This document shows, one piece after another, positions 1 to 9,711 of a DNA stretch of 9,711 bases. Position 1 is the first letter of the stretch; each line of letters begins with the position of its first letter. A program made the translations under genes and the position numbers. This DNA is from a virus (taxonomy: Duplodnaviria > Heunggongvirae > Uroviricota > Caudoviricetes): the IMG/VR virus record IMGVR_UViG_2706794665_000014. One strand, 5' to 3'. The notes beneath the pieces are model-generated. The model searched no databases, was not told the DNA's origin, and was given only the letters and a program-made list of their open reading frames with translations.

Positions 1-45
1 GACAAAGTCATCGGGCATTATCTGAACATAAAACACTATCAATAA
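1..45 (+). CDS. insB: IS1 transposase InsB, last 14 codons (5'-partial)
   Basis: In-frame translation from base 1 gives DKVIGHYLNIKHYQ followed by TAA at 43-45. Confidence 0.8.
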   Translation, partial: DKVIGHYLNIKHYQ

Positions 46-60
46 GTTGGAGTCATTACC
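1..60 (+). mobile_element. IS1 insertion sequence, 3'-terminal 60 bp (end of insB plus right terminal inverted repeat); the rest of the element lies upstream of the window
   Basis: Bases 1-60 match the canonical IS1 right end as I recall it: insB C-terminus DKVIGHYLNIKHYQ with TAA at 43-45, then the terminal repeat ending GTTGGAGTCATTACC at 60. The reverse complement of 38-60 (GGTAATGACTCCAACTTATTGAT) is an imperfect copy of the left repeat at 9622-9644. Confidence 0.88.
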
Positions 61-62
61 AA

Positions 63-224
63 ACGGTTGAAATGTATGCCGCTACTTACGGGTCCTGTAA
101 TCCTCTGAATAAACCAGAGGGAAAAGATGATTTCGACAAAATTTACCGCTTCTTGGAGGACCGCTATATCAAAAGCTTAGAGGACGCAGGGATCAAATCC
201 CCAGTGAAGTCACCATTGTCCTGA
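63..224 (+). pseudogene. Orphan open frame starting at the IS1 junction: possible 3' remnant of a gene disrupted by IS1 (or a 50-codon ORF from ATG 72)
   Basis: Frame is open for 53 codons from base 63 to TGA 222-224 (TVEMYAATYGSCNPLNKPEGKDDFDKIYRFLEDRYIKSLEDAGIKSPVKSPLS). No Shine-Dalgarno before ATG 72. The opposite strand is full of stops here. Not listed in the ORF track. Confidence 0.3.
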
Positions 225-558
225 GAACTTGCAGAACGTCATGATCATAACTTCCATCCAAACCGCGACGGCGAATTGCTTCTCGTATTACCGGAAGCAG
301 TTCGCTGGAAATCTCGGTGCATATTTCACCTGATAATACGCTTGGCTCAAGTGAGAATATTGGTGAACTTACGGTCTTGGTCTCGACAGTTTCAGAGTCA
401 GTGCCAACATTATAAAGCTCAACGAAAGCGGTCTTGATTTTCCGGGCCAGATCTTTTGCTGGCTCGCTTGCAATATCTTTCCCGATTTCTCGCAGCACAG
501 AATGCAATGTATGAGCTGCTGTTTTCTGTACATCAGACGGTAAATCTTTAAATTCCAT
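193..558 (-). CDS. Hypothetical prophage early-leftward protein, about 121 aa
   Basis: ORF 193-570 on minus strand. Preferred start is the internal ATG at 558 (MEFKDLPSD...), preceded by GAGG about 6 nt upstream; the ATG at 570 overlaps the upstream gene's stop (TGATG). No family recognised. Confidence 0.55.
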   Translation of the reverse strand: MEFKDLPSDVQKTAAHTLHSVLREIGKDIASEPAKDLARKIKTAFVELYNVGTDSETVETKTVSSPIFSLEPSVLSGEICTEISSELLPVIREAIRRRGLDGSYDHDVLQVLRTMVTSLGI

Positions 559-569
559 CGTCAGCCTCA

Positions 570-722
570 TCAGTCAGTGTTTCTGGCTAACCAGCAACGC
601 GCGCCAGATTCGGTTTTAAACGTTTTGCTTTTGGTATACGTCATGGCGGTAAACGTTCCATCCTGGTTAGGGAACACGCCGCACACCAGAGATTCGTTGT
701 TGCCAAGATCGATAGTATCCAT
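570..722 (-). CDS. Hypothetical small prophage protein, about 50 aa
   Basis: Minus-strand ORF; ATG at 722 is preceded by AGGGGAAATGAGG with 5-nt spacing. The in-frame extension to 776 has no RBS. Stop overlaps the start of the downstream gene. Confidence 0.45.
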   Translation of the reverse strand: MDTIDLGNNESLVCGVFPNQDGTFTAMTYTKSKTFKTESGARCWLARNTD

Positions 723-903
723 GCTGACCTCATTTCCCCTTAACGCCGGGGTGGCGGAACAAAAAACCTGCTGCATAGTTAAAGATTGAACCCTGCCGTC
801 ATGTTCTTACGCCTCGGGCTGGCTACTTAACCCCTGACCACTGTCTGGTAACTCGAAGTATTGCCCTGCATTCTGTGGGGCGGGGTGGGTTGACGCCTGA
901 AAC

Positions 904-946
904 AATAGCATCATTATTTTTTTTTGATGTAAATAGCATCGCTATT
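904..946. promoter_or_regulatory. Leftward operator-like pair: two copies of the palindrome AATAG-N5-CTATT (O_L-like)
   Basis: 904-918 AATAGCATCATTATT (imperfect) and 932-946 AATAGCATCGCTATT (perfect inverted repeat), 28 bp centre to centre. Same motif as the sites in the repressor/cro intergenic region. Confidence 0.4.
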
Positions 947-961
947 GTTTTTTGTTGGGGC

Positions 962-986
962 AAGAAAAAACCACCCTAAGGTGGTT
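962..986 (-). terminator. Rho-independent terminator at the end of the repressor-antitoxin-toxin operon
   Basis: Stem AACCACC (969-975) / GGTGGTT (980-986) with 4-nt loop. On the minus strand the hairpin is followed by TTTTTCTTG (complement of 961-968). It sits 17 bp past the toxin stop codon (1003-1005). Confidence 0.55.
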
Positions 987-1002
987 CTGTCGGCGGGAAT
1001 AA

Positions 1003-1293
1003 TTAACTGTTTTTGCCTGGATACTGTCTTCGAGAATGCACAATATTTACTACTTCTATGCTTGATGCTGTTACTCGGTAAAGGATGATGTAGTTAGGAT
1101 GAGTTACAATTTCACGAAGACCAAGAACTCGCTCGCTTGGAGGATACAGGTAAGGATGCTCTGTGAGCGGCAAAACGGATGTTTCAATTCGAATTTTCAT
1201 TCTGCGTGCTGCCGCGGGATTTTCTTTAGCTATGTAGGCTACGATCTGGCGCAAATCATCACGAGCAGATGGTAGCCATAAAACGGGTAACAT
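1003..1293 (-). CDS. Type II toxin, ParE/RelE superfamily (96 aa)
   Basis: Size and sequence pattern typical of ParE/RelE toxins (MLPVLWLPSARDDLRQIVAYIAKENPAAARR...GLREIVTHPNYIILYRV...IVHSRRQYP). Start overlaps the upstream antitoxin stop by 1 nt (TAATG); GAGGTG RBS lies inside the antitoxin 3' end. Confidence 0.8.
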   Translation of the reverse strand: MLPVLWLPSARDDLRQIVAYIAKENPAAARRMKIRIETSVLPLTEHPYLYPPSERVLGLREIVTHPNYIILYRVTASSIEVVNIVHSRRQYPGKNS

Positions 1294-1487
1294 TATTCAC
1301 CTCTGTGAGTTGCAGCAGCAATTTGGGCAATAATTTGTTCCATTTCCGCCATTACCTCATCATGCGGAATCGCCGGGCGGGGATCCGCGAGGCTTGCTGC
1401 TACTTTGGCCCGCAGCCATTCGTTGTAACTATTTTCTTGCTCAACTGTCTCAAATTCTGAAACCATTGGGGAAAGGACTGTACTCAT
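1293..1487 (-). CDS. Putative antitoxin (addiction-module antidote-like, 64 aa) paired with the ParE/RelE toxin
   Basis: Small acidic ORF immediately upstream of and overlapping the toxin gene. GAGGAG RBS 9 nt before ATG 1487. Sequence (…NEWLRAKVAASLADPRPAIPHDEVMAEMEQII…) resembles antidote proteins that partner RelE/ParE toxins. Confidence 0.65.
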   Translation of the reverse strand: MSTVLSPMVSEFETVEQENSYNEWLRAKVAASLADPRPAIPHDEVMAEMEQIIAQIAAATHRGE

Positions 1488-1506: not shown

Positions 1507-2007
1507 TTAGGCGCGACGGCCTTTTTGTGCAGCTAACCACCGCGCAACCGTACGATCCATTGATTCTTTTTTATCTTTCATCTCCTGAAGCATGTGTTCT
1601 TGATCTTCTTTCGGAAAAGCTCTGAACGTATGGATTAAATCTCGTTCCATCGGCTCTACGGCAAACGGTAGTTCATCCTCTGTTTGTTCTGTGTCTGCTG
1701 GTAATGCGACTATGTTATCTTGCTGTGGTTCTCGACAATACATCCTTGCAATTTGCAGCAAATCTACCATGTCTGGCCTGATTGACTCAGGGGGAACTTT
1801 CAGTAAGCCAGCAAACTTTAGAACAGCCTCAAGGTTTAGTGGGGTTTGACCATTTAGGTAGTGACTTACCGCCCCTTGTGTTGAAAACCCCATAATTTCC
1901 GCCGCACGTTCCTGAGTCAATCCCAACTGAGATTTCTTTGCCATCCAGATTTCTTTCAGTCTTCTGGCGGCGTTGAGGTCGGTGTCTGACAATGATTTTC
2001 TTTTCAT
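1507..2007 (-). CDS. Prophage repressor, XRE-family helix-turn-helix (cI/RacR-like, about 166 aa), no recognisable LexA-like peptidase domain
   Basis: N-terminal HTH (LGLTQERAAEIMGFSTQGAVSHYLNGQTP). Divergent from the cro-like gene. Preferred start ATG 2007 (MKRKSL...); the ORF-track start at 2037 is GTG with no RBS. The C-terminal half is acidic with no Ser/Lys peptidase motif seen. Confidence 0.8.
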   Translation of the reverse strand: MKRKSLSDTDLNAARRLKEIWMAKKSQLGLTQERAAEIMGFSTQGAVSHYLNGQTPLNLEAVLKFAGLLKVPPESIRPDMVDLLQIARMYCREPQQDNIVALPADTEQTEDELPFAVEPMERDLIHTFRAFPKEDQEHMLQEMKDKKESMDRTVARWLAAQKGRRA

Positions 2008-2014
2008 ACATCCA

Positions 2015-2084
2015 ATTCTAATAAGATTGCTAATCACTTTGAAATAGTATCACTATTTACTTTTAAAAATAACAGTGCTATTAA
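2015..2084. promoter_or_regulatory. Divergent promoter/operator region (O_R-like) between the repressor and cro-like genes
   Basis: Three copies of the AATAG-N5-CTATT palindrome at 2020-2034 (weak), 2043-2057 (perfect, AATAGTATCACTATT) and 2068-2082, spaced 23-25 bp. Candidate rightward promoter: -35 TTTACT 2056-2061, -10 TATTAA 2079-2084. Candidate leftward promoter on minus strand: -35 TTCAAA (complement of 2038-2043), -10 TAGAAT (complement of 2015-2020), which places the transcript start at about the repressor ATG. Confidence 0.45.
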
Positions 2085-2875: not shown

Positions 2876-3953
2876 ATGGCTAACGCCTGGCTCAGATTAT
2901 GGCATGACATGCCAAATGACCCTAAGTGGCGAACAATTGCCAGGGTGTCAGGGCAGCCAATTGCAACAGTGATGGCAGTGTATATCCACCTCCTGGTGAG
3001 CGCGTCACGAAATGTCACGCGAGGTCACATTGATGTCACGACAGAAGNNNNNNNNNNNNNNNNNNNNNNNNNNNNNNNNNNNNNNNNNNNNNNNNNNNNN
3101 NNNNNNNNNNNNNNNNNNNNNNNNNNNNNNNNNNNNNNNNNNNNNNNNNNNNNNNNNNNNNNNNNNNNNNNNNNNNNNNNNNNNNNNNNNNNNNNNNNNN
3201 NNNNNNNNNNNNNNNNNNNNNNNNNNNNNNNNNNNNNNNNNNNNNNNNNNNNNNNNNNNNNNNNNNNNNNNNNNNNNNNNNNNNNNNNNNNNNNNNNNNN
3301 NNNNNNTGTCACGACGAGTCACGACAGATACAGATAAAGATACAGATAAAGAAGATCAAAACACTATGGTCCATGGCGTAAAAAACGCCACGAACCAGGC
3401 AGGGGATGTTCAGACCGTCAATCCTGGTCAGCCAGCAGGCTCGACACCGGAAGCCGATTCAGCGTATGCGCTGAAAGCCGATTCGGGCGCTGTGCAGCAG
3501 GTGATGACCGCAAGGCCGGAGCAATCACTCCAACTGCAGCAGCCTGAAGCCGATTCCGCCATTCAGCGGGAAGCCGATCGGGTAGCCCCGGAAAACACCG
3601 GGCAGCCTGTGGGACGAGTGGATTATCCGGATGTGTTCGAACAGGTCTGGCGGGAATACCCGTTGCGTGCCGGGGCAAACCCGAAGAAATCCGCATTCAG
3701 TGCCTGGAAGGCCAGATTGCGCGAGGGGGTGCCACCAGAGACCATGCTGGATGGTGTGAGGCGTTACGCGAGATACCTGGCGGCGACCGGGAAAGCGGGA
3801 ACGGAATTTGTTCAGCGAGCGACGACGTTTTTTGGGCCGGACCGGAATTTTGAAAACCCCTGGTTGCTCCCGGTAAGCGGCACGAACAACCAGCGTTGTG
3901 TGAATCATATTTCTGAACCGGATACCGAAATTCCGCCGGGATTCAGGGGGTGA
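2876..3953 (+). CDS. Phage replication initiator / replisome organiser (YdaU-DUF1376-like N-terminus), origin iterons inside the coding sequence; frame not continuous across the masked gap (possible frameshift/pseudogene, or two ORFs)
   Basis: ATG 2876 after AGAAGAGG RBS. N-terminus MANAWLRLWHDMPNDPKWRTIARVSG... is typical of phage replication proteins. The C-terminal portion (frame of 3012-3953) ends in a TGA that overlaps the dnaC-like ATG. The frame before the gap (codons at 2876+3n) ends at TAA 3335-3337 after the gap, while the frame reaching 3953 is different. Confidence 0.5.
3004..3350. repeat. Replication-origin-like iteron array (TGTCACG-type repeats at about 10-bp spacing) followed by an AT-rich tandem repeat; the middle is masked
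   Basis: GTCACG at 3004-3009, TGTCACG 3013-3019, GGTCACA 3023-3029, TGTCACG 3034-3040; after the gap TGTCACG 3307-3313 and AGTCACG 3317-3323; then GATACAGATAAA twice (3327-3338, 3339-3350). Confidence 0.5.
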
Positions 3954-4696
3954 TGTGGCATGANNNNNNNNNNNNNNNNNNNNNNNNNNNNNNNNNNNNN
4001 NNNNNNNNNNNNNNNNNNNNNNNNNNNNNNNNNNNNNNNNNNNNNNNNNNNNNNNNNNNNNNNNNNNNNNNNNNNNNNNNNNNNNNNNNNNNNNNNNNNN
4101 NNNNNNNNNNNNNNNNNNNNNNNNNNNNNNNNNNNNNNNNNNNNNNNNNNNNNNNNNNNNNNNNNNNNNNNNNNNNNNNNNNNNNNNNNNNNNNNNNNNN
4201 NNNNNNNNNNNNNNNNNNNNNNNNNNNNNNNNNNNNNCTGATGACCGGGTGCACGAATTTTGTGTTCAGCGGTAAAACCGGCACCGGGAAAAATCACCTT
4301 GCAGCGGCGATGGGTAACCGGCTGATGGCGAAGGGGCGCAGCGTGATTATCGTCACCGAGTCTGATGTCATGAGCGTGTTGCATGACAGCTACGACAACG
4401 GCAAATCCGGTGAAAAATTTTTACAGGAGCTTTGCGGGGTTGATTTGCTGGTCCTGGATGAAATAGGCATTCAGCGGGAGACGAAAAACGAGCAGGTGGT
4501 ATTGCACCAGATAATTGATCGCCGGACAGCATCACTGTGCAGTGTCGGGATGTTAACAAACCTGAATCATGCCGCAATGAGCACGCTTCTTGGTGAGAGG
4601 ATTATGGACCGCATGACCATGAACGGTTGTCGGTGGGTGACGTTTAACTGGGATAGCTGGCGTTCAAATGTCAGCTTTCCGGGAGTTGTGAAGTAA
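3953..4696 (+). CDS. DnaC-like replicative helicase loader (IstB-like AAA+ ATPase; YdaV-like)
   Basis: Walker A FSGKTGTGKNHLAAA and Walker B LLVLDEIG. ATG 3953 overlaps the stop of the upstream replication gene (TGATG). The N-terminal ~90 codons are masked (3964-4237). Confidence 0.85.
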   Translation: MWHXXXXXXXXXXXXXXXXXXXXXXXXXXXXXXXXXXXXXXXXXXXXXXXXXXXXXXXXXXXXXXXXXXXXXXXXXXXXXXXXXXXXXXXXXXXXLMTGCTNFVFSGKTGTGKNHLAAAMGNRLMAKGRSVIIVTESDVMSVLHDSYDNGKSGEKFLQELCGVDLLVLDEIGIQRETKNEQVVLHQIIDRRTASLCSVGMLTNLNHAAMSTLLGERIMDRMTMNGCRWVTFNWDSWRSNVSFPGVVK

Positions 4697-5458: not shown

Positions 5459-5911
5459 ATGGCAAANNNNNNNNNNNNNNNNNNNNNNNNNNNNNNNNNN
5501 NNNNNNNNNNNNNNNNNNNNNNNNNNNNNNNNNNNNNNNNNNNNNNNNNNNNNNNNNNNNNNNNNNNNNNNNNNNNNNNNNNNNNNNNNNNNNNNNNNNN
5601 NNNNNNNNNNNNNNNNNNNNNNNNNNNNNNNNNNNNNNNNNNNNNNNNNNNNNNNNNNNNNNNNNNNNNNNNNNNNNNNNNNNNNNNNNNNNNNNNNNNN
5701 NNNNNNNNNNNNNNNNNNNNNNNNNNNNNNNNNNNNNNNNNNNAAGAAACCATCTGTGGTTGATCCGGACCTTATCTGGTCATTACCGGACGGAGAAATA
5801 CGCCGCTACGACAGACATCAGAACATAATCTGTCGCGAGTGCCGGAAGAGTGAAGTTATGCAGCGTGTACCGGCTTTCTATCAGGGTGATTTTCAGGAGG
5901 CGGTACTGTGA
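5459..5911 (+). CDS. Hypothetical protein, central part masked
   Basis: ATG 5459 follows the previous stop by 15 bp. After the gap the same frame continues through ...CRECRKSEVMQRVPAFYQGDFQEAVL to TGA 5909-5911. Other frames are also open across the N block, so continuity is unproven. Confidence 0.4.
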   Translation: MAXXXXXXXXXXXXXXXXXXXXXXXXXXXXXXXXXXXXXXXXXXXXXXXXXXXXXXXXXXXXXXXXXXXXXXXXXXXXXXXXXXXXXXXXXXXXXKKPSVVDPDLIWSLPDGEIRRYDRHQNIICRECRKSEVMQRVPAFYQGDFQEAVL

Positions 5912-6539: not shown

Positions 6540-8372
6540 ATGGCCCGCATGTTTGATACATTAGGATTTTACATTATGAATGTGCAACATTTTGATTTTT
6601 TTACAGATAATGAGTTTTCTAATCTGGAAAGATATCAAACTTGTAAAGCCATGGCCAAAGGTTATGCGGGCAATTACAAAACCGGGCAGTCAAGGTTGAT
6701 GCATGCCCGCTCATACTGCTTCAGCATCGTAGCTGCATATTGGGATACCCTTGCAAAAAAGCAAAAAAGCAGCATTAAAATGAGGGCAGTACCGCACACT
6801 GTTTACATAGAAGACATTCCATGTGATGCACGCGAGCTCGCTGAACGAACAGGTGAGCTTATTGCTCAATTTCCGGCGGAGGACGCTGGATATCTGATTG
6901 GGTCAATTTATACGGTAATGCTGCCATCCGCTTACCGTTCGGAATTGGGGGCTTACTATACCCCCCCACCTTTGGTAGCGCGTCTCTTGGACCTGGCTGA
7001 AAAGTCTGGTGTTGATTTTTCTCATGCATCGGTTATTGATCCTGCGTGTGGTGGCGGTGCATTTTTGGCACCAGTAGCCATTCGAATGTTAAAAAAAGAC
7101 AAGGGGTCTTCCCCTGAATGGATGTTGAGGAGAATCAGTCGTCGTTTAAAGGGGATAGAGATCGATCCATTTGCGGCTTGGATGAGTTTGGTATTGCTCG
7201 AATCTGTACTAATGCCACTATGTGTAAAGGTAAAACGTAGATTGCCTGAAGATACAATTATTGTTGCTGATGCGCTTCAGCAAGATAAATTTTCTGGTTA
7301 TGATCTTGTGGTAGGGAATCCGCCTTACGGACGTGTCACTCTCGATATTAAAACGAGAGAAAAATATTCTCGTTCGTTATTTGGTCATGCAAATCTATAT
7401 GGATTGTTCACCGACTTAGCTGTTCGCATGGTTAAAGAGAAAACAGGAGTTATTGCATTTCTTACGCCAACTTCTTTTCTTGGTGGGCAGTATTTCACCG
7501 CGCTGCGAACCCTTTTGACCGAAAAAACTACTCCGTATGCCCTTGATTTCGTCACTGACAGGGATGGGGTCTTTGACGATGTTCTCCAGGAAACAATGTT
7601 GACAGCATTCAAGGCGGGAGAACATAAAGTTCGGGCCCAGGTATCCTCACTTGTCCCTAAGGGGTTGAACAAAGCAAAAATTGAGAAAATAGGTAATGTT
7701 GATATAGAAAAAGGTGGAGCAACGTGGCTTTTGCCACGCGTTAAAGATGATGCCTGTTTTCTTAATGTATTAAAACAGATGTCTACGCGTTTAGCTGATC
7801 TGGGATACTCAGTCTCTACAGGTCAGTTAGTCTGGAATCGATTTAAGTCGCAGTTGCGTACGACGAAAGGAAAAAATAGCTACCCATTAGTCTGGGCGGA
7901 ATCAATAACTTCAGCTGGTTTTCGTTTTAGTGCAGACAGAAAAAATCATGTTCCCTATATCGATATAACCCCACAACAGGGTTTCCTTGTGACAAAATCT
8001 GAATGTGTGCTTGTTCAGCGGACAACATCGAAGGAACAGGACAGAAGGATTTTAGCGGCAATTTTACCTCAGGGATTTATAGATGAAACTGGTGGCGTAG
8101 TAGTTGAAAACCATATTAATATTGTATATTCAAACGGATTGTTCTCTGCGGTTCGCCCTGATGTTATTGATATGCTACTTAATTCGCATGTTGTCGATCG
8201 GGCGTTCAGGTGTATAAGCGGAAGTGTTGCTGTTTCGGCCTATGAATTGAATTCAATCCCGTTGCCTTCTCTGGAGCAGGTGATGGAGATTCAATCGTTA
8301 ATTGATGCTGGCGTCCACAGACGGATTATTGAGAGAACTATCGCTGGTTTCTATGGAGTGATGATTGCATGA
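6540..8372 (+). CDS. N6-adenine DNA methyltransferase, gamma class (Eco57I/TaqI-like), 610 aa
   Basis: Motif X GAYYTPPPLVARLL (about 6948-6989), motif I VIDPACGGGAFL (about 7032-7067), motif IV VVGNPPYG (NPPY at 7317-7328), in the order X-I-IV. Alternative start ATG 6576 with AGGA RBS. AT-richer than the upstream phage genes. Confidence 0.85.
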   Translation: MARMFDTLGFYIMNVQHFDFFTDNEFSNLERYQTCKAMAKGYAGNYKTGQSRLMHARSYCFSIVAAYWDTLAKKQKSSIKMRAVPHTVYIEDIPCDARELAERTGELIAQFPAEDAGYLIGSIYTVMLPSAYRSELGAYYTPPPLVARLLDLAEKSGVDFSHASVIDPACGGGAFLAPVAIRMLKKDKGSSPEWMLRRISRRLKGIEIDPFAAWMSLVLLESVLMPLCVKVKRRLPEDTIIVADALQQDKFSGYDLVVGNPPYGRVTLDIKTREKYSRSLFGHANLYGLFTDLAVRMVKEKTGVIAFLTPTSFLGGQYFTALRTLLTEKTTPYALDFVTDRDGVFDDVLQETMLTAFKAGEHKVRAQVSSLVPKGLNKAKIEKIGNVDIEKGGATWLLPRVKDDACFLNVLKQMSTRLADLGYSVSTGQLVWNRFKSQLRTTKGKNSYPLVWAESITSAGFRFSADRKNHVPYIDITPQQGFLVTKSECVLVQRTTSKEQDRRILAAILPQGFIDETGGVVVENHINIVYSNGLFSAVRPDVIDMLLNSHVVDRAFRCISGSVAVSAYELNSIPLPSLEQVMEIQSLIDAGVHRRIIERTIAGFYGVMIA

Positions 8373-9469
8373 ATCTGCCTGTTGTTCCCCCATTGAATGT
8401 TATCCGGGAAAGATTACAATTAATTTTCCCTGAAGGGACTGAGAATCGTGGATATTTAATTCGGGAAATAGCTGCAAAAACAATTTTTGTCATGTTTTAT
8501 GCTGGTGCGGTTGAGGGGCTGGGGCGATGGATAAGGCCCAGCCAGGTTGTAAGTATGGGAGATTCGCAGGCTGCTCTTACTGATGATGCGTCCAGAGAAA
8601 GCTGGGTAAAGATGACTTTCTCTAAACAAAAGATAAGGCCTGCTGATGCATGGTATGCGGAAAATACGCGTGAGCCAATACGTGATGAAACTATAAAAAA
8701 TGGCCTAATACCTTGCAATGCAATTGTTGAGCGTAAAGGTATACCCACCACATCCTCTCGTCCTCGTTACAGTTTGAATCGCTCTTTTGCAGCACTCTTT
8801 GATGCCGGGCTTGAAGGAGATTCGCTGCTGAGTGCAATAAGTTCCTGGCAAGAAAATCATTTGAACAAAGCCGCTCTTGCTAGNNNNNNNNNNNNNNNNN
8901 NNNNNNNNNNNNNNNNNNNNNNNNNNNNNNNNNNNNNNNNNNNNNNNNNNNNNNNNNNNNNNNNNNNNNNNNNNNNNNNNNNNNNNNNNNNNNNNNNNNN
9001 NNNNNNNNNNNNNNNNNNNNNNNNNNNNNNNNNNNNNNNNNNNNNNNNNNNNNNNNNNNNNNNNNNNNNNNNNNNNNNNNNNNNNNNNNNNNNNNNNNNN
9101 NNNNNNNNNNNNNNNNNNNNNNNNNNNNNNNNNNNNNNNNNNNNNNNNNNNNNNCCAGATATTATTTTGATTGATTTGGGAGAGGACCGAACGGGTTCGG
9201 ACATGCTTGTAGTTTTCACTGAAGTAGTTGCGACAGATGGGCCTATAAACAGGGAACGAAAAGTTACTCTCACTCATTTGGCTATTGACGCTGGGTTCAG
9301 CGAGAAAAATCTTGCATTCCTTACGGCATTTATGGACAGAAGTGCTCTGCCTTTTAAAAAGGCAATACCAGAATTGGCGTGGGGATCTTATGCATGGTTT
9401 GCTTCTGAACCGGAGCACTTAATTGATCTTCGGGATGGTTATCCGGTAAAGATCAGCCAGAGAAAATGA
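8369..9469 (+). CDS. Methyltransferase-coupled partner protein, 366 aa; putative restriction endonuclease (possibly BsuBI/PstI-like), family not verified
   Basis: ATG 8369 overlaps the MTase stop (ATGA) with GGAG about 10 nt upstream, so operon coupling is clear. No catalytic motif recognised by eye; about 90 central codons are masked (8884-9154). Function inferred from context. Confidence 0.6.
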   Translation: MNLPVVPPLNVIRERLQLIFPEGTENRGYLIREIAAKTIFVMFYAGAVEGLGRWIRPSQVVSMGDSQAALTDDASRESWVKMTFSKQKIRPADAWYAENTREPIRDETIKNGLIPCNAIVERKGIPTTSSRPRYSLNRSFAALFDAGLEGDSLLSAISSWQENHLNKAALAXXXXXXXXXXXXXXXXXXXXXXXXXXXXXXXXXXXXXXXXXXXXXXXXXXXXXXXXXXXXXXXXXXXXXXXXXXXXXXXXXXXXXXXXXXXPDIILIDLGEDRTGSDMLVVFTEVVATDGPINRERKVTLTHLAIDAGFSEKNLAFLTAFMDRSALPFKKAIPELAWGSYAWFASEPEHLIDLRDGYPVKISQRK

Positions 9470-9621: not shown

Positions 9622-9711
9622 GGTGATGCTGCCAACTTACTGATTTAGTGTATGATGGTGTTTTTGAGGTGCTCCAGTGGCTTCTGTTTCTATCAGCTGT
9701 CCCTCCTGTTC
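9622..9711 (+). mobile_element. IS1 insertion sequence, 5'-terminal 90 bp (left inverted repeat and start of insA); the element continues past the window end
   Basis: GGTGATGCTGCCAACTTACTGAT at 9622-9644 is the IS1 terminal repeat, followed by the canonical IS1 leader and the insA start. Same orientation as the IS1 end at 1-60. Confidence 0.88.
9677..9711 (+). CDS. insA: IS1 InsA, N-terminal codons (3'-partial)
   Basis: GTG 9677 then GCT TCT GTT TCT ATC AGC TGT CCC TCC TGT TC, giving (M)ASVSISCPSC, the InsA N-terminus. Confidence 0.7.
   Translation, partial: MASVSISCPSC

Follow-up and report, generated by a model that had tools for sequence, protein, structure and literature searches.

What do two small leftward genes placed behind a pair of phage operators do for the prophage that carries them? 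The question is raised by positions 193 to 722 of a 9,711-nucleotide (nt) stretch of DNA, IMG/VR record IMGVR_UViG_2706794665_000014 (Caudoviricetes), the whole of which we call the window. The upstream gene (gene 1) encodes a member of the YdfA/YdaF family (DUF1391) and the downstream one (gene 2) a 121-residue protein that begins MEFKDLP. We conclude that the two genes are very probably the promoter-proximal part of a dicBF-type early-left (P_L) operon in a cryptic lambdoid prophage of the Qin/CP-933P kind, whose host is apparently Shigella sonnei. The explanation as a whole, covering identity, operon and the roles of both genes, has in our estimate about an even chance of being right.

Both open reading frames (ORFs) lie on the minus strand where a first-pass annotation of this DNA had placed them, according to a program-made ORF list and to direct reading of the letters. 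Gene 1 (570..722, stop codon included) encodes 50 residues, MDTIDLGNNE..., and has GAGG 5 nt before its ATG. The second ORF (193..570) encodes 125 residues from an ATG at 570 and contains the 121-residue reading (193..558), whose ATG at 558 lies 12 nt further on. The junction on the minus strand, from 572 to 555, reads TGATGAGGCTGACGATGG. The TGATG overlap that was said to join the two genes is physically present; it belongs to the 125-residue reading and not to the 121-residue protein for which it was claimed. We favour ATG 558 as the start of gene 2, because the RefSeq annotation of a close relative (prophage L001, described below) gives 121 residues, because the PHROG 33007 profile covers residues 5-125 of the 125-residue ORF, because M1 and E2 of MEFKDLP are invariant in the alignment of the 121-residue family, and because an Escherichia albertii prophage (L017) is without the upstream ATG yet keeps the M-E-F-K-D-L-P start. 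By direct reading, a Shine-Dalgarno sequence, GAGG, is found at 565..568 on the minus strand, with a 6-nt spacer before this ATG. With the start at 558 the two genes are separated by 11 nt and do not overlap, a spacing that is still close enough for coupled expression. None of the N-masked runs in the window (3048-3306, 3964-4237, 5467-5743 and 8884-9154) touches the two-gene region and, judged from their sequences, both ORFs are real genes, beyond chance.

The first-pass annotation recognised neither protein, which was wrong in the case of gene 1. This protein matches PF07151 (DUF1391) with 98.9 bits against a cutoff of 27.3 (E 1.3e-28, profile positions 1-47 of 48) and phrog_751 with E 1e-35, and it is 90% identical to YdfA of the K-12 prophage Qin (over 49 residues) and 86% identical to YdaF of Rac. 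All the family-conserved residues, counted over 53 diverse DUF1391 members (D5, G7, N8, N9, E10, G15, D21, G22, A26, T28, S32, K33, F35, K36, T37, G40, A41 and W44), are present in it. Pairwise comparison with seven other prophage copies gave ratios of non-synonymous to synonymous substitution rates (dN/dS) of 0.00-0.21, at synonymous divergences (dS) of up to 0.67. Gene 1 is therefore a constrained protein-coding gene, and the substitution pattern points to strong purifying selection. Its exact sequence is found on about 1000 contigs, for which the organism name given is Shigella sonnei.

Beyond this lineage, the phages with DUF1391 that are plaque-forming or complete come from Escherichia, Serratia, Pantoea and Salicola. 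In Serratia phage OS31 it directly follows cI as the first gene, in HeidiAbel_Bas97 and Pantoea Nafs113 it lies within early small-gene clusters, and on metagenomic contigs it occurs in runs of tightly packed small ORFs of the same strand. A conserved gene pair across distant phages was considered and rejected, the gene that follows DUF1391 being unrelated in Qin, OS31, Nafs113 and HeidiAbel. Some annotations give DUF1391 proteins of 68-83 residues with an N-terminal extension; the extension is not conserved, its frame differs or is interrupted in the window, and the 50-residue start has a good Shine-Dalgarno sequence. The 'ydfA' of an IncI1-type plasmid operon (PMC12111858) looks, judged by its name, like a coincidence of names only. 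DUF1391 genes in several phage records (ON470580, ON470583, ON470595, PV340562 and others) are labelled 'head-DNA stabilization protein D'. A PDB profile match to the phage 21 protein SHP (E 0.043) spans 19 residues, too short to support a head-decoration protein, and is lost with a more diverse profile; the label is probably a misannotation that stems from this chance likeness.

The type of operon is given by its close relatives. The same two genes, at 97-98% DNA identity, are present in a prophage of E. coli ETEC4090 located beside potC/potD (L001) and in the plaque-forming phage mEp460, and in both they are followed by dicB, ydfD, a large exonuclease gene, xis and int. In L001 the small RNA DicF lies between the 121-residue gene and dicB (Rfam, 72.5 bits), and the order in K-12 Qin is ydfA-ydfB-ydfC-dicF-dicB-ydfD. 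An Rfam scan detected no DicF in the window or in the sister loci L005, L006, L007, L011 and L012. Likewise, dicB and ydfD are absent from the window, where IS1 begins 132 bp past the stop codon of the 121-residue gene. Among the sister genomes, dicB-ydfD-ydfE persist past two IS1 copies in L012 only, and several others have lost the region as far as ynfF.

The truncation is marked at the left end of the window by bases 1..60 (plus strand), which we take to be the last 60 bases of the 3' end of IS1. The insertion point falls at 60/61, homology to unique sequence begins at base 61, and the element has thousands of copies in E. coli genomes. In L006-L012 the IS1 genes, InsA and DDE_Tnp_IS1, directly adjoin the 121-residue gene. 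Bases 9622-9711 are the start of a second IS1 in the same orientation, so that both ends of the window match IS1 copies. The prophage fragment is thus bracketed by two IS1 elements, the left one contributing its 3' end and the right one its 5' end. What the window holds of the dicBF-type operon is its front end, which lies in a prophage remnant at the Qin position and is cut by IS1 after gene 2. The two-gene feature is already annotated in public records (gene 1 ever since the K-12 genome, gene 2 as a catalogued hypothetical protein) and the operon type is textbook for E. coli prophages; it is set apart by a different cassette replacing ydfB/ydfC, a different immunity specificity and the IS1 truncation.

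Control of the two genes was examined by scanning the whole 9.7-kb window for the operator motif AATAGNNNNNCTATT with at most one mismatch. Only four matches were obtained, against 0.20 expected by chance, and none of 200 shuffles reached four. Two of these sites lie upstream of the genes and bear out the O_L-like operator pair that had been proposed: the proximal operator, AATAGCATCATTATT, at 904..918, and the distal operator, AATAGCATCGCTATT, a perfect 6-3-6 palindrome, at 932..946. The other two, which follow the O_L consensus, form an O_R-like pair (2043..2057 and 2068..2082) between the divergent repressor and cro-like genes, where a possible third site (2020-2034) has two mismatches. From the sequence we predict a TG-extended P_L -10 element, TGcTATTGT, at 910..902 on the minus strand (902..910), inside the right half of the proximal operator. 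The rightward promoter (2076-2084) has the same TGcTATT arrangement. A leftward early operon behind an operator pair is therefore upheld, with the proximal operator overlapping the predicted -10 element. The O_L/P_L reading is sound, and we infer the position of the start site; transcription would begin at the TG-extended -10 promoter overlapped by the proximal operator.

A helix-turn-helix repressor (1507..2037, minus strand, start codon uncertain), whose C-terminal part weakly matches the DicA model, is followed on the same strand by a PaaA2 antitoxin (1293..1487) and a ParE toxin (1003..1293), both recognised by family matches. This order is the paaR2-paaA2-parE2 architecture of CP-933P (PMC8630535). 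The repressor-PaaA2-ParE2 operon ends at an intrinsic terminator on the minus strand (957..990), a hairpin with a U-run (-15.1 kcal/mol, z -2.97). Since this terminator stands between parE and the operators, the two genes need their own promoter. The equivalent promoter is repressor-controlled in all three relatives in which it has been studied: in Qin, dicBp rises 22-fold on deletion of dicA and the ydfA mRNA starts at dicBp (PMC10448788); in CP-933P, the PL promoter (PL933P, downstream of parE2) is repressed about 100-fold by PaaR2 and by YdaS (PMC8630535); and in Rac, lowered racR expression brings an increase of about 40-fold in ydaF and ydaG (PMC6765115, PMC11014345). The earlier description of the pair as repressor-controlled early genes therefore holds for the equivalent promoter of these relatives, and for the present copy we infer it from them. 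A DicA/PaaR2-like repressor would keep the two genes off in the lysogen (O_L and O_R share a consensus). The operators, AATAGC-N3-GCTATT, differ from the published CP-933P repeats, and their sequence indicates a new immunity specificity of the studied switch.

Between the two operators, inside the promoter spacer, lies an A9/T9 homopolymer (917..925). Seven sister S. sonnei genomes have A8 at this place and one has A7, and in several of them the run is the sole difference over 3 kb. The length of this tract could tune or phase-vary P_L, with spacers of 20, 19 or 18 nt, or the variation could be a homopolymer sequencing error. The 5' leader of the operon lies at 723..895 on the minus strand. 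About 100 nt of it (approximately 790-890) are some 93% identical, by eye, to the leader of CP-933P-like L001 and to the Rac leader upstream of ydaG. The first gene behind this shared stretch differs, being ydaG in Rac. A structured or known RNA in the leader was rejected: there is no Rfam match, and folding (z +0.59) is no better than that of shuffles.

Compared with known systems, the locus resembles the DicA-repressed dicBF operon of Qin in that its first gene is of the YdfA family and lies downstream of a repressor gene, behind a repressor-controlled promoter, and in that intact relatives of the window keep dicB and ydfD in the Qin order, with DicF in L001. It departs from Qin in having an unrelated 121-residue gene in place of ydfB and ydfC, a PaaA2-ParE pair and a terminator between repressor and promoter, and a different operator sequence; DicF, dicB and ydfD are missing from the window owing to IS1. 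The likeness to CP-933P (Sp12 of E. coli O157:H7) extends to the repressor/antitoxin/toxin module, the divergent cro-like and YdaT genes, and, downstream of parE2, a promoter of the P_L type that has operators and leads into ORFs (PMC8630535). The operators differ, those of CP-933P being based on the repeat GTTTAGTAA (PMC8630535), and the homology of the window to CP-933P-like L001 gives out near base 892, just short of the operators. The early-left region of Rac (racR-ydaG-ydaF-sieB-kilR) shares YdaF, at the identity given above, and the leader stretch, and in Rac, as in the window, the block ends in an overlap with a convergent gene (sieB in Rac, a 66-residue ORF here). Unlike the window, Rac has ydaG before ydaF and no 121-residue gene, and carries KilR rather than DicB/DicF downstream.

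This position in the operon bears on the function first suggested for the two genes, namely that one or both have a kil, host-takeover or superinfection-exclusion role and are toxic or defence-related when expressed. It is at the P_L position that lambda and Rac carry kil and sieB, with kilR and sieB close to ydaF in Rac, and the operon is tightly repressed in its relatives (PMC8630535, PMC10448788). The known toxic products of a dicBF-type operon, DicF, DicB and YdfD, map downstream, in the part cut off here by IS1. When Plac replaces dicBp in Qin, the wild-type operon is lethal (PMC5069750); a dicF/dicB double deletion that still has ydfA, ydfB, ydfC and ydfD shows normal growth, viability and morphology on induction (PMC5069750). 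This normal growth argues against a kil-type role for the DUF1391 gene; the result bears on that gene alone, Qin being without the 121-residue gene. A filamentation screen likewise credits the Qin region to dicB and dicF (PMC6206680). No PADLOC defence model matched either protein, or the convergent ORF, at E <= 1, and neither protein has a membrane segment or matches a toxin family. The kil, exclusion or toxic reading and the defence-related idea are thus not supported, and we regard such functions, on this analysis, as quite improbable.

A second possibility is that DUF1391 is a small DNA-binding protein of the AP2, integrase-arm-binding or CedA class, which would have an early regulatory task in transcription, recombination or cell division rather than one in counter-defence. 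The AlphaFold2 model of gene 1 has a mean predicted local distance difference test score (pLDDT) of 82.7 and shows an unstructured segment (residues 1-14), three strands (15-18, 24-27 and 32-35) and a helix (38-48). Fold searches of this model (Foldseek, BFVD) gave no significant match. Among the weak listings were the lambda integrase N-domain (Foldseek) and phage HNH endonucleases (BFVD), and the segment has sub-threshold Pfam matches to Arm-DNA-bind_4 (E 0.09 and 0.26) and CedA (E 0.15). A mean net charge of +2.4 in the family, the conservation of K33, K36 and R47, and the co-occurrence of DUF1391 with the DNA-binding ArdC-N domain also speak for such a protein. The profile-profile comparisons failed, however: CedA shares a local motif, S-x-x-F-x-x-E-S-x-A-x-R-W, and reached an hhalign probability of 6-12% with three profiles, AP2 reached 2.8%, and homology to either was rejected. 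A PDB profile search returned no AP2, integrase-arm or CedA family. The window protein is approximately neutral and is without the Arg/Trp-rich sheet of AP2, and the most conserved motif of the family, D-L-G-N-N-E, sits in the predicted unstructured segment, a location more usual for a protein-docking peptide. The model thus weakly suggests a resemblance of fold class only to AP2 and integrase-arm domains, and a DNA-binding regulator seems to us an unlikely role.

A different lead came from the domain architectures in which DUF1391 occurs. A HMMER scan of 1.84 billion representatives (E <= 0.001) retrieved 329 cluster representatives with the DUF1391 profile, and 14 of the best 150 exceed 200 residues. 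DUF1391 is joined to DarA_N in five cluster representatives (P0334, P0351, P0361, P0364 and P0366) and to ArdC-N and DUF3560 in two (P0343 and P0372), and a metagenomic protein of 722 residues (P0403) has tandem DUF1391 domains (residues 166-230 and 263-307). The fused copies keep the motif D/T-[LM]-G-N-[NG]-E, and their contigs look like phage or mobile elements. Many fused copies and some solo ones also have a short R-G-[LY]-x-x-[DE]-G extension past the helix. Such architectures are those of polyvalent proteins, multi-domain proteins of phages and conjugative elements that bundle early effectors against host defences (Iyer et al. 2017, PMC5512222). DUF1391 with its DLGNNE motif is one of their modules, and several other polyvalent domains are also known solo in phages (PMC5512222). 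The window protein differs from these in being a solo 50-residue domain expressed from a predicted early promoter and not a giant protein delivered by the virion or by conjugation. In its timing it is comparable to two small early anti-restriction proteins, lambda Ral and T7 Ocr, whose genes lie at or close to the beginning of the first transcript after infection (general knowledge and PMC5512222); neither sequence nor structural similarity to them was detected, so that the analogy is one of timing only.

We therefore propose, because DUF1391 is built into large proteins beside the anti-restriction domains DarA-N and ArdC-N, that its role may be counter-restriction or other counter-defence; this is our leading candidate for the function, though a tentative one that is more likely wrong than right. 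Gene 1 would encode an immediate-early, non-toxic accessory protein through which phage DNA, incoming or induced, is better able to withstand the host, and binding to a host protein or a nucleic acid would be its mode of action.

Gene 2 belongs to a smaller and more restricted family. The 121-residue ORF matches phrog_33007 (E 5e-80), and its homologues, at 76-98% identity, are named from Salmonella, Enterobacter and Hafnia. The family forms 22 clusters at 90% identity (Escherichia/Shigella, Salmonella, Enterobacter, Hafnia and Serratia), and the gene has a dN/dS of 0.32-0.53. Only its first 50 or so residues are common to proteins with other C-termini, as seen in an alignment and in matches to PHROGs 9419, 1363, 2151 and 6937; the middle of the protein is poorly conserved. 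Local profile searches located this N-terminal module right after DUF1391, with an identical junction sequence, in E. albertii prophage L014, after ydfA-ydfB-ydfC in L017, and in the early region of an Stx2a phage. The MEFKDLP module follows DUF1391 in a subset of Escherichia prophages only, and from these sequences the gene is an optional, lineage-restricted cassette between ydfA (or ydfC) and dicF. In the AlphaFold model a helical hairpin (8-25 and 32-50) is followed by disorder (53-86) and two helices (88-118). A conserved N-terminal module with differing C-termini suggests a division of labour: in gene 2 the shared helical module would dock, and the swappable C-terminus would serve as effector or determine target specificity. 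An archaeal histone fold for the N-terminal module was rejected (NCBIfam, 14.2 bits against a cutoff of 50; PDB HMfB, E 0.056 over 27 residues). The likeness is structurally inconsistent, because the aligned stretch crosses a predicted loop with a proline and not a continuous long helix.

Put together, these proposals describe DUF1391 as a solo module of polyvalent proteins and a new family of very small immediate-early counter-defence proteins, which would relieve, for example, type I restriction or some other defence that targets DNA. In Rac/Qin-type lambdoid phages it would be the first P_L product, acting through the DLGNNE peptide and a mini domain of three strands and a helix, with the MEFKDLP cassette as a second accessory factor of swappable C-terminal specificity. 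In this full form we consider the proposal speculative and unlikely to hold in every part. Several points weigh against our explanation. The number of independent fusion architectures is only about three to four, because four of the DarA_N proteins and a further protein in which no DarA_N was detected (P0382) share a near-identical DUF1391 segment and represent one lineage. Polyvalent proteins also carry domains unrelated to restriction (PMC5512222), and DUF1391 is not named in the main text of that paper. A place in the leading region of conjugative plasmids is ruled out, DUF1391 being found in 19 of 72,556 plasmid records, almost all of them non-mobilisable and just one mobilisable. The function of ydfABC has been called 'unknown' (PMC5069750, PMC11430063), and the authors who studied CP-933P could assign none to the ORFs after P_L (PMC8630535). 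The model of the 121-residue protein is of low confidence (pLDDT 55.6), its secondary structure alone being usable. Finally, in a degraded, repressed and IS1-truncated remnant the two genes may do nothing.

The last point can be stated as an explanation in its own right: the two genes here would be inert passengers, silent leftovers of a decaying prophage, retained solely on account of the youth of the S. sonnei clone and of no present use to host or phage. IS1 at both ends of the fragment, the truncation of the operon, the deletion or displacement of the distal genes in sister genomes and the unfavourable 20-nt promoter spacer of this copy are all in keeping with it. So is the near identity of the sisters (about 99.9-100% over the aligned 3 kb), which makes them uninformative on selection within the lineage. 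On the other side, both ORFs are intact, as are the repressor, the operators and the toxin-antitoxin module, and DUF1391 is strongly constrained across prophage lineages and carried by plaque-forming phages. The passenger explanation concerns the local copy only and is compatible with a family function and with the other readings; we hold it to be possible, if doubtful.

Several further features were noted in the fragment and in its relatives. A convergent small ORF on the plus strand (72..224) matches phrog_34441 (E 6e-36, profile positions 17-66 of 66) and overlaps the 3' end of the 121-residue gene by 32 nt. It has 66 residues when intact and is annotated as such in L001 (6964-7164), and the protein is 98.5-100% conserved in E. 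coli prophages and mEp460. IS1 splits this ORF and cuts off its first 15 or so codons, and in L006, L008, L009 and L012 the first 15 residues are found beyond IS1. Past the first IS1 in L006 and L012 (9795-9984), genes for the isrK and C4 antisense RNAs precede an ASH/pRha antirepressor gene; IS1 has here brought a different immunity/antirepressor module alongside. At 6540-9469 the prophage fragment carries a BsuBI/PstI-type restriction-modification pair, recognised by the Pfam tags of identical genes in L005-L012 and made up of a 610-residue N6_Mtase/Eco57I methylase and a BsuBI_PstI endonuclease of about 360 residues. The four N runs of the window, 1081 bases in all, mask parts of the replication-gene and endonuclease regions and make ORF calls across them unreliable.

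Few prophage genes of E. coli, Shigella and Salmonella are as widespread as YdfA/YdaF. For cryptic operons such as this one, a variable A-tract in the promoter spacer could matter for the tightness of silencing. The link to polyvalent proteins is a modest new lead that makes the function of YdfA/YdaF directly testable: the reuse of DUF1391 beside DarA-N and ArdC-N, together with its constant position in immediate-early gene blocks, makes the alleviation of restriction or defence by a protein of 50 residues a candidate activity.

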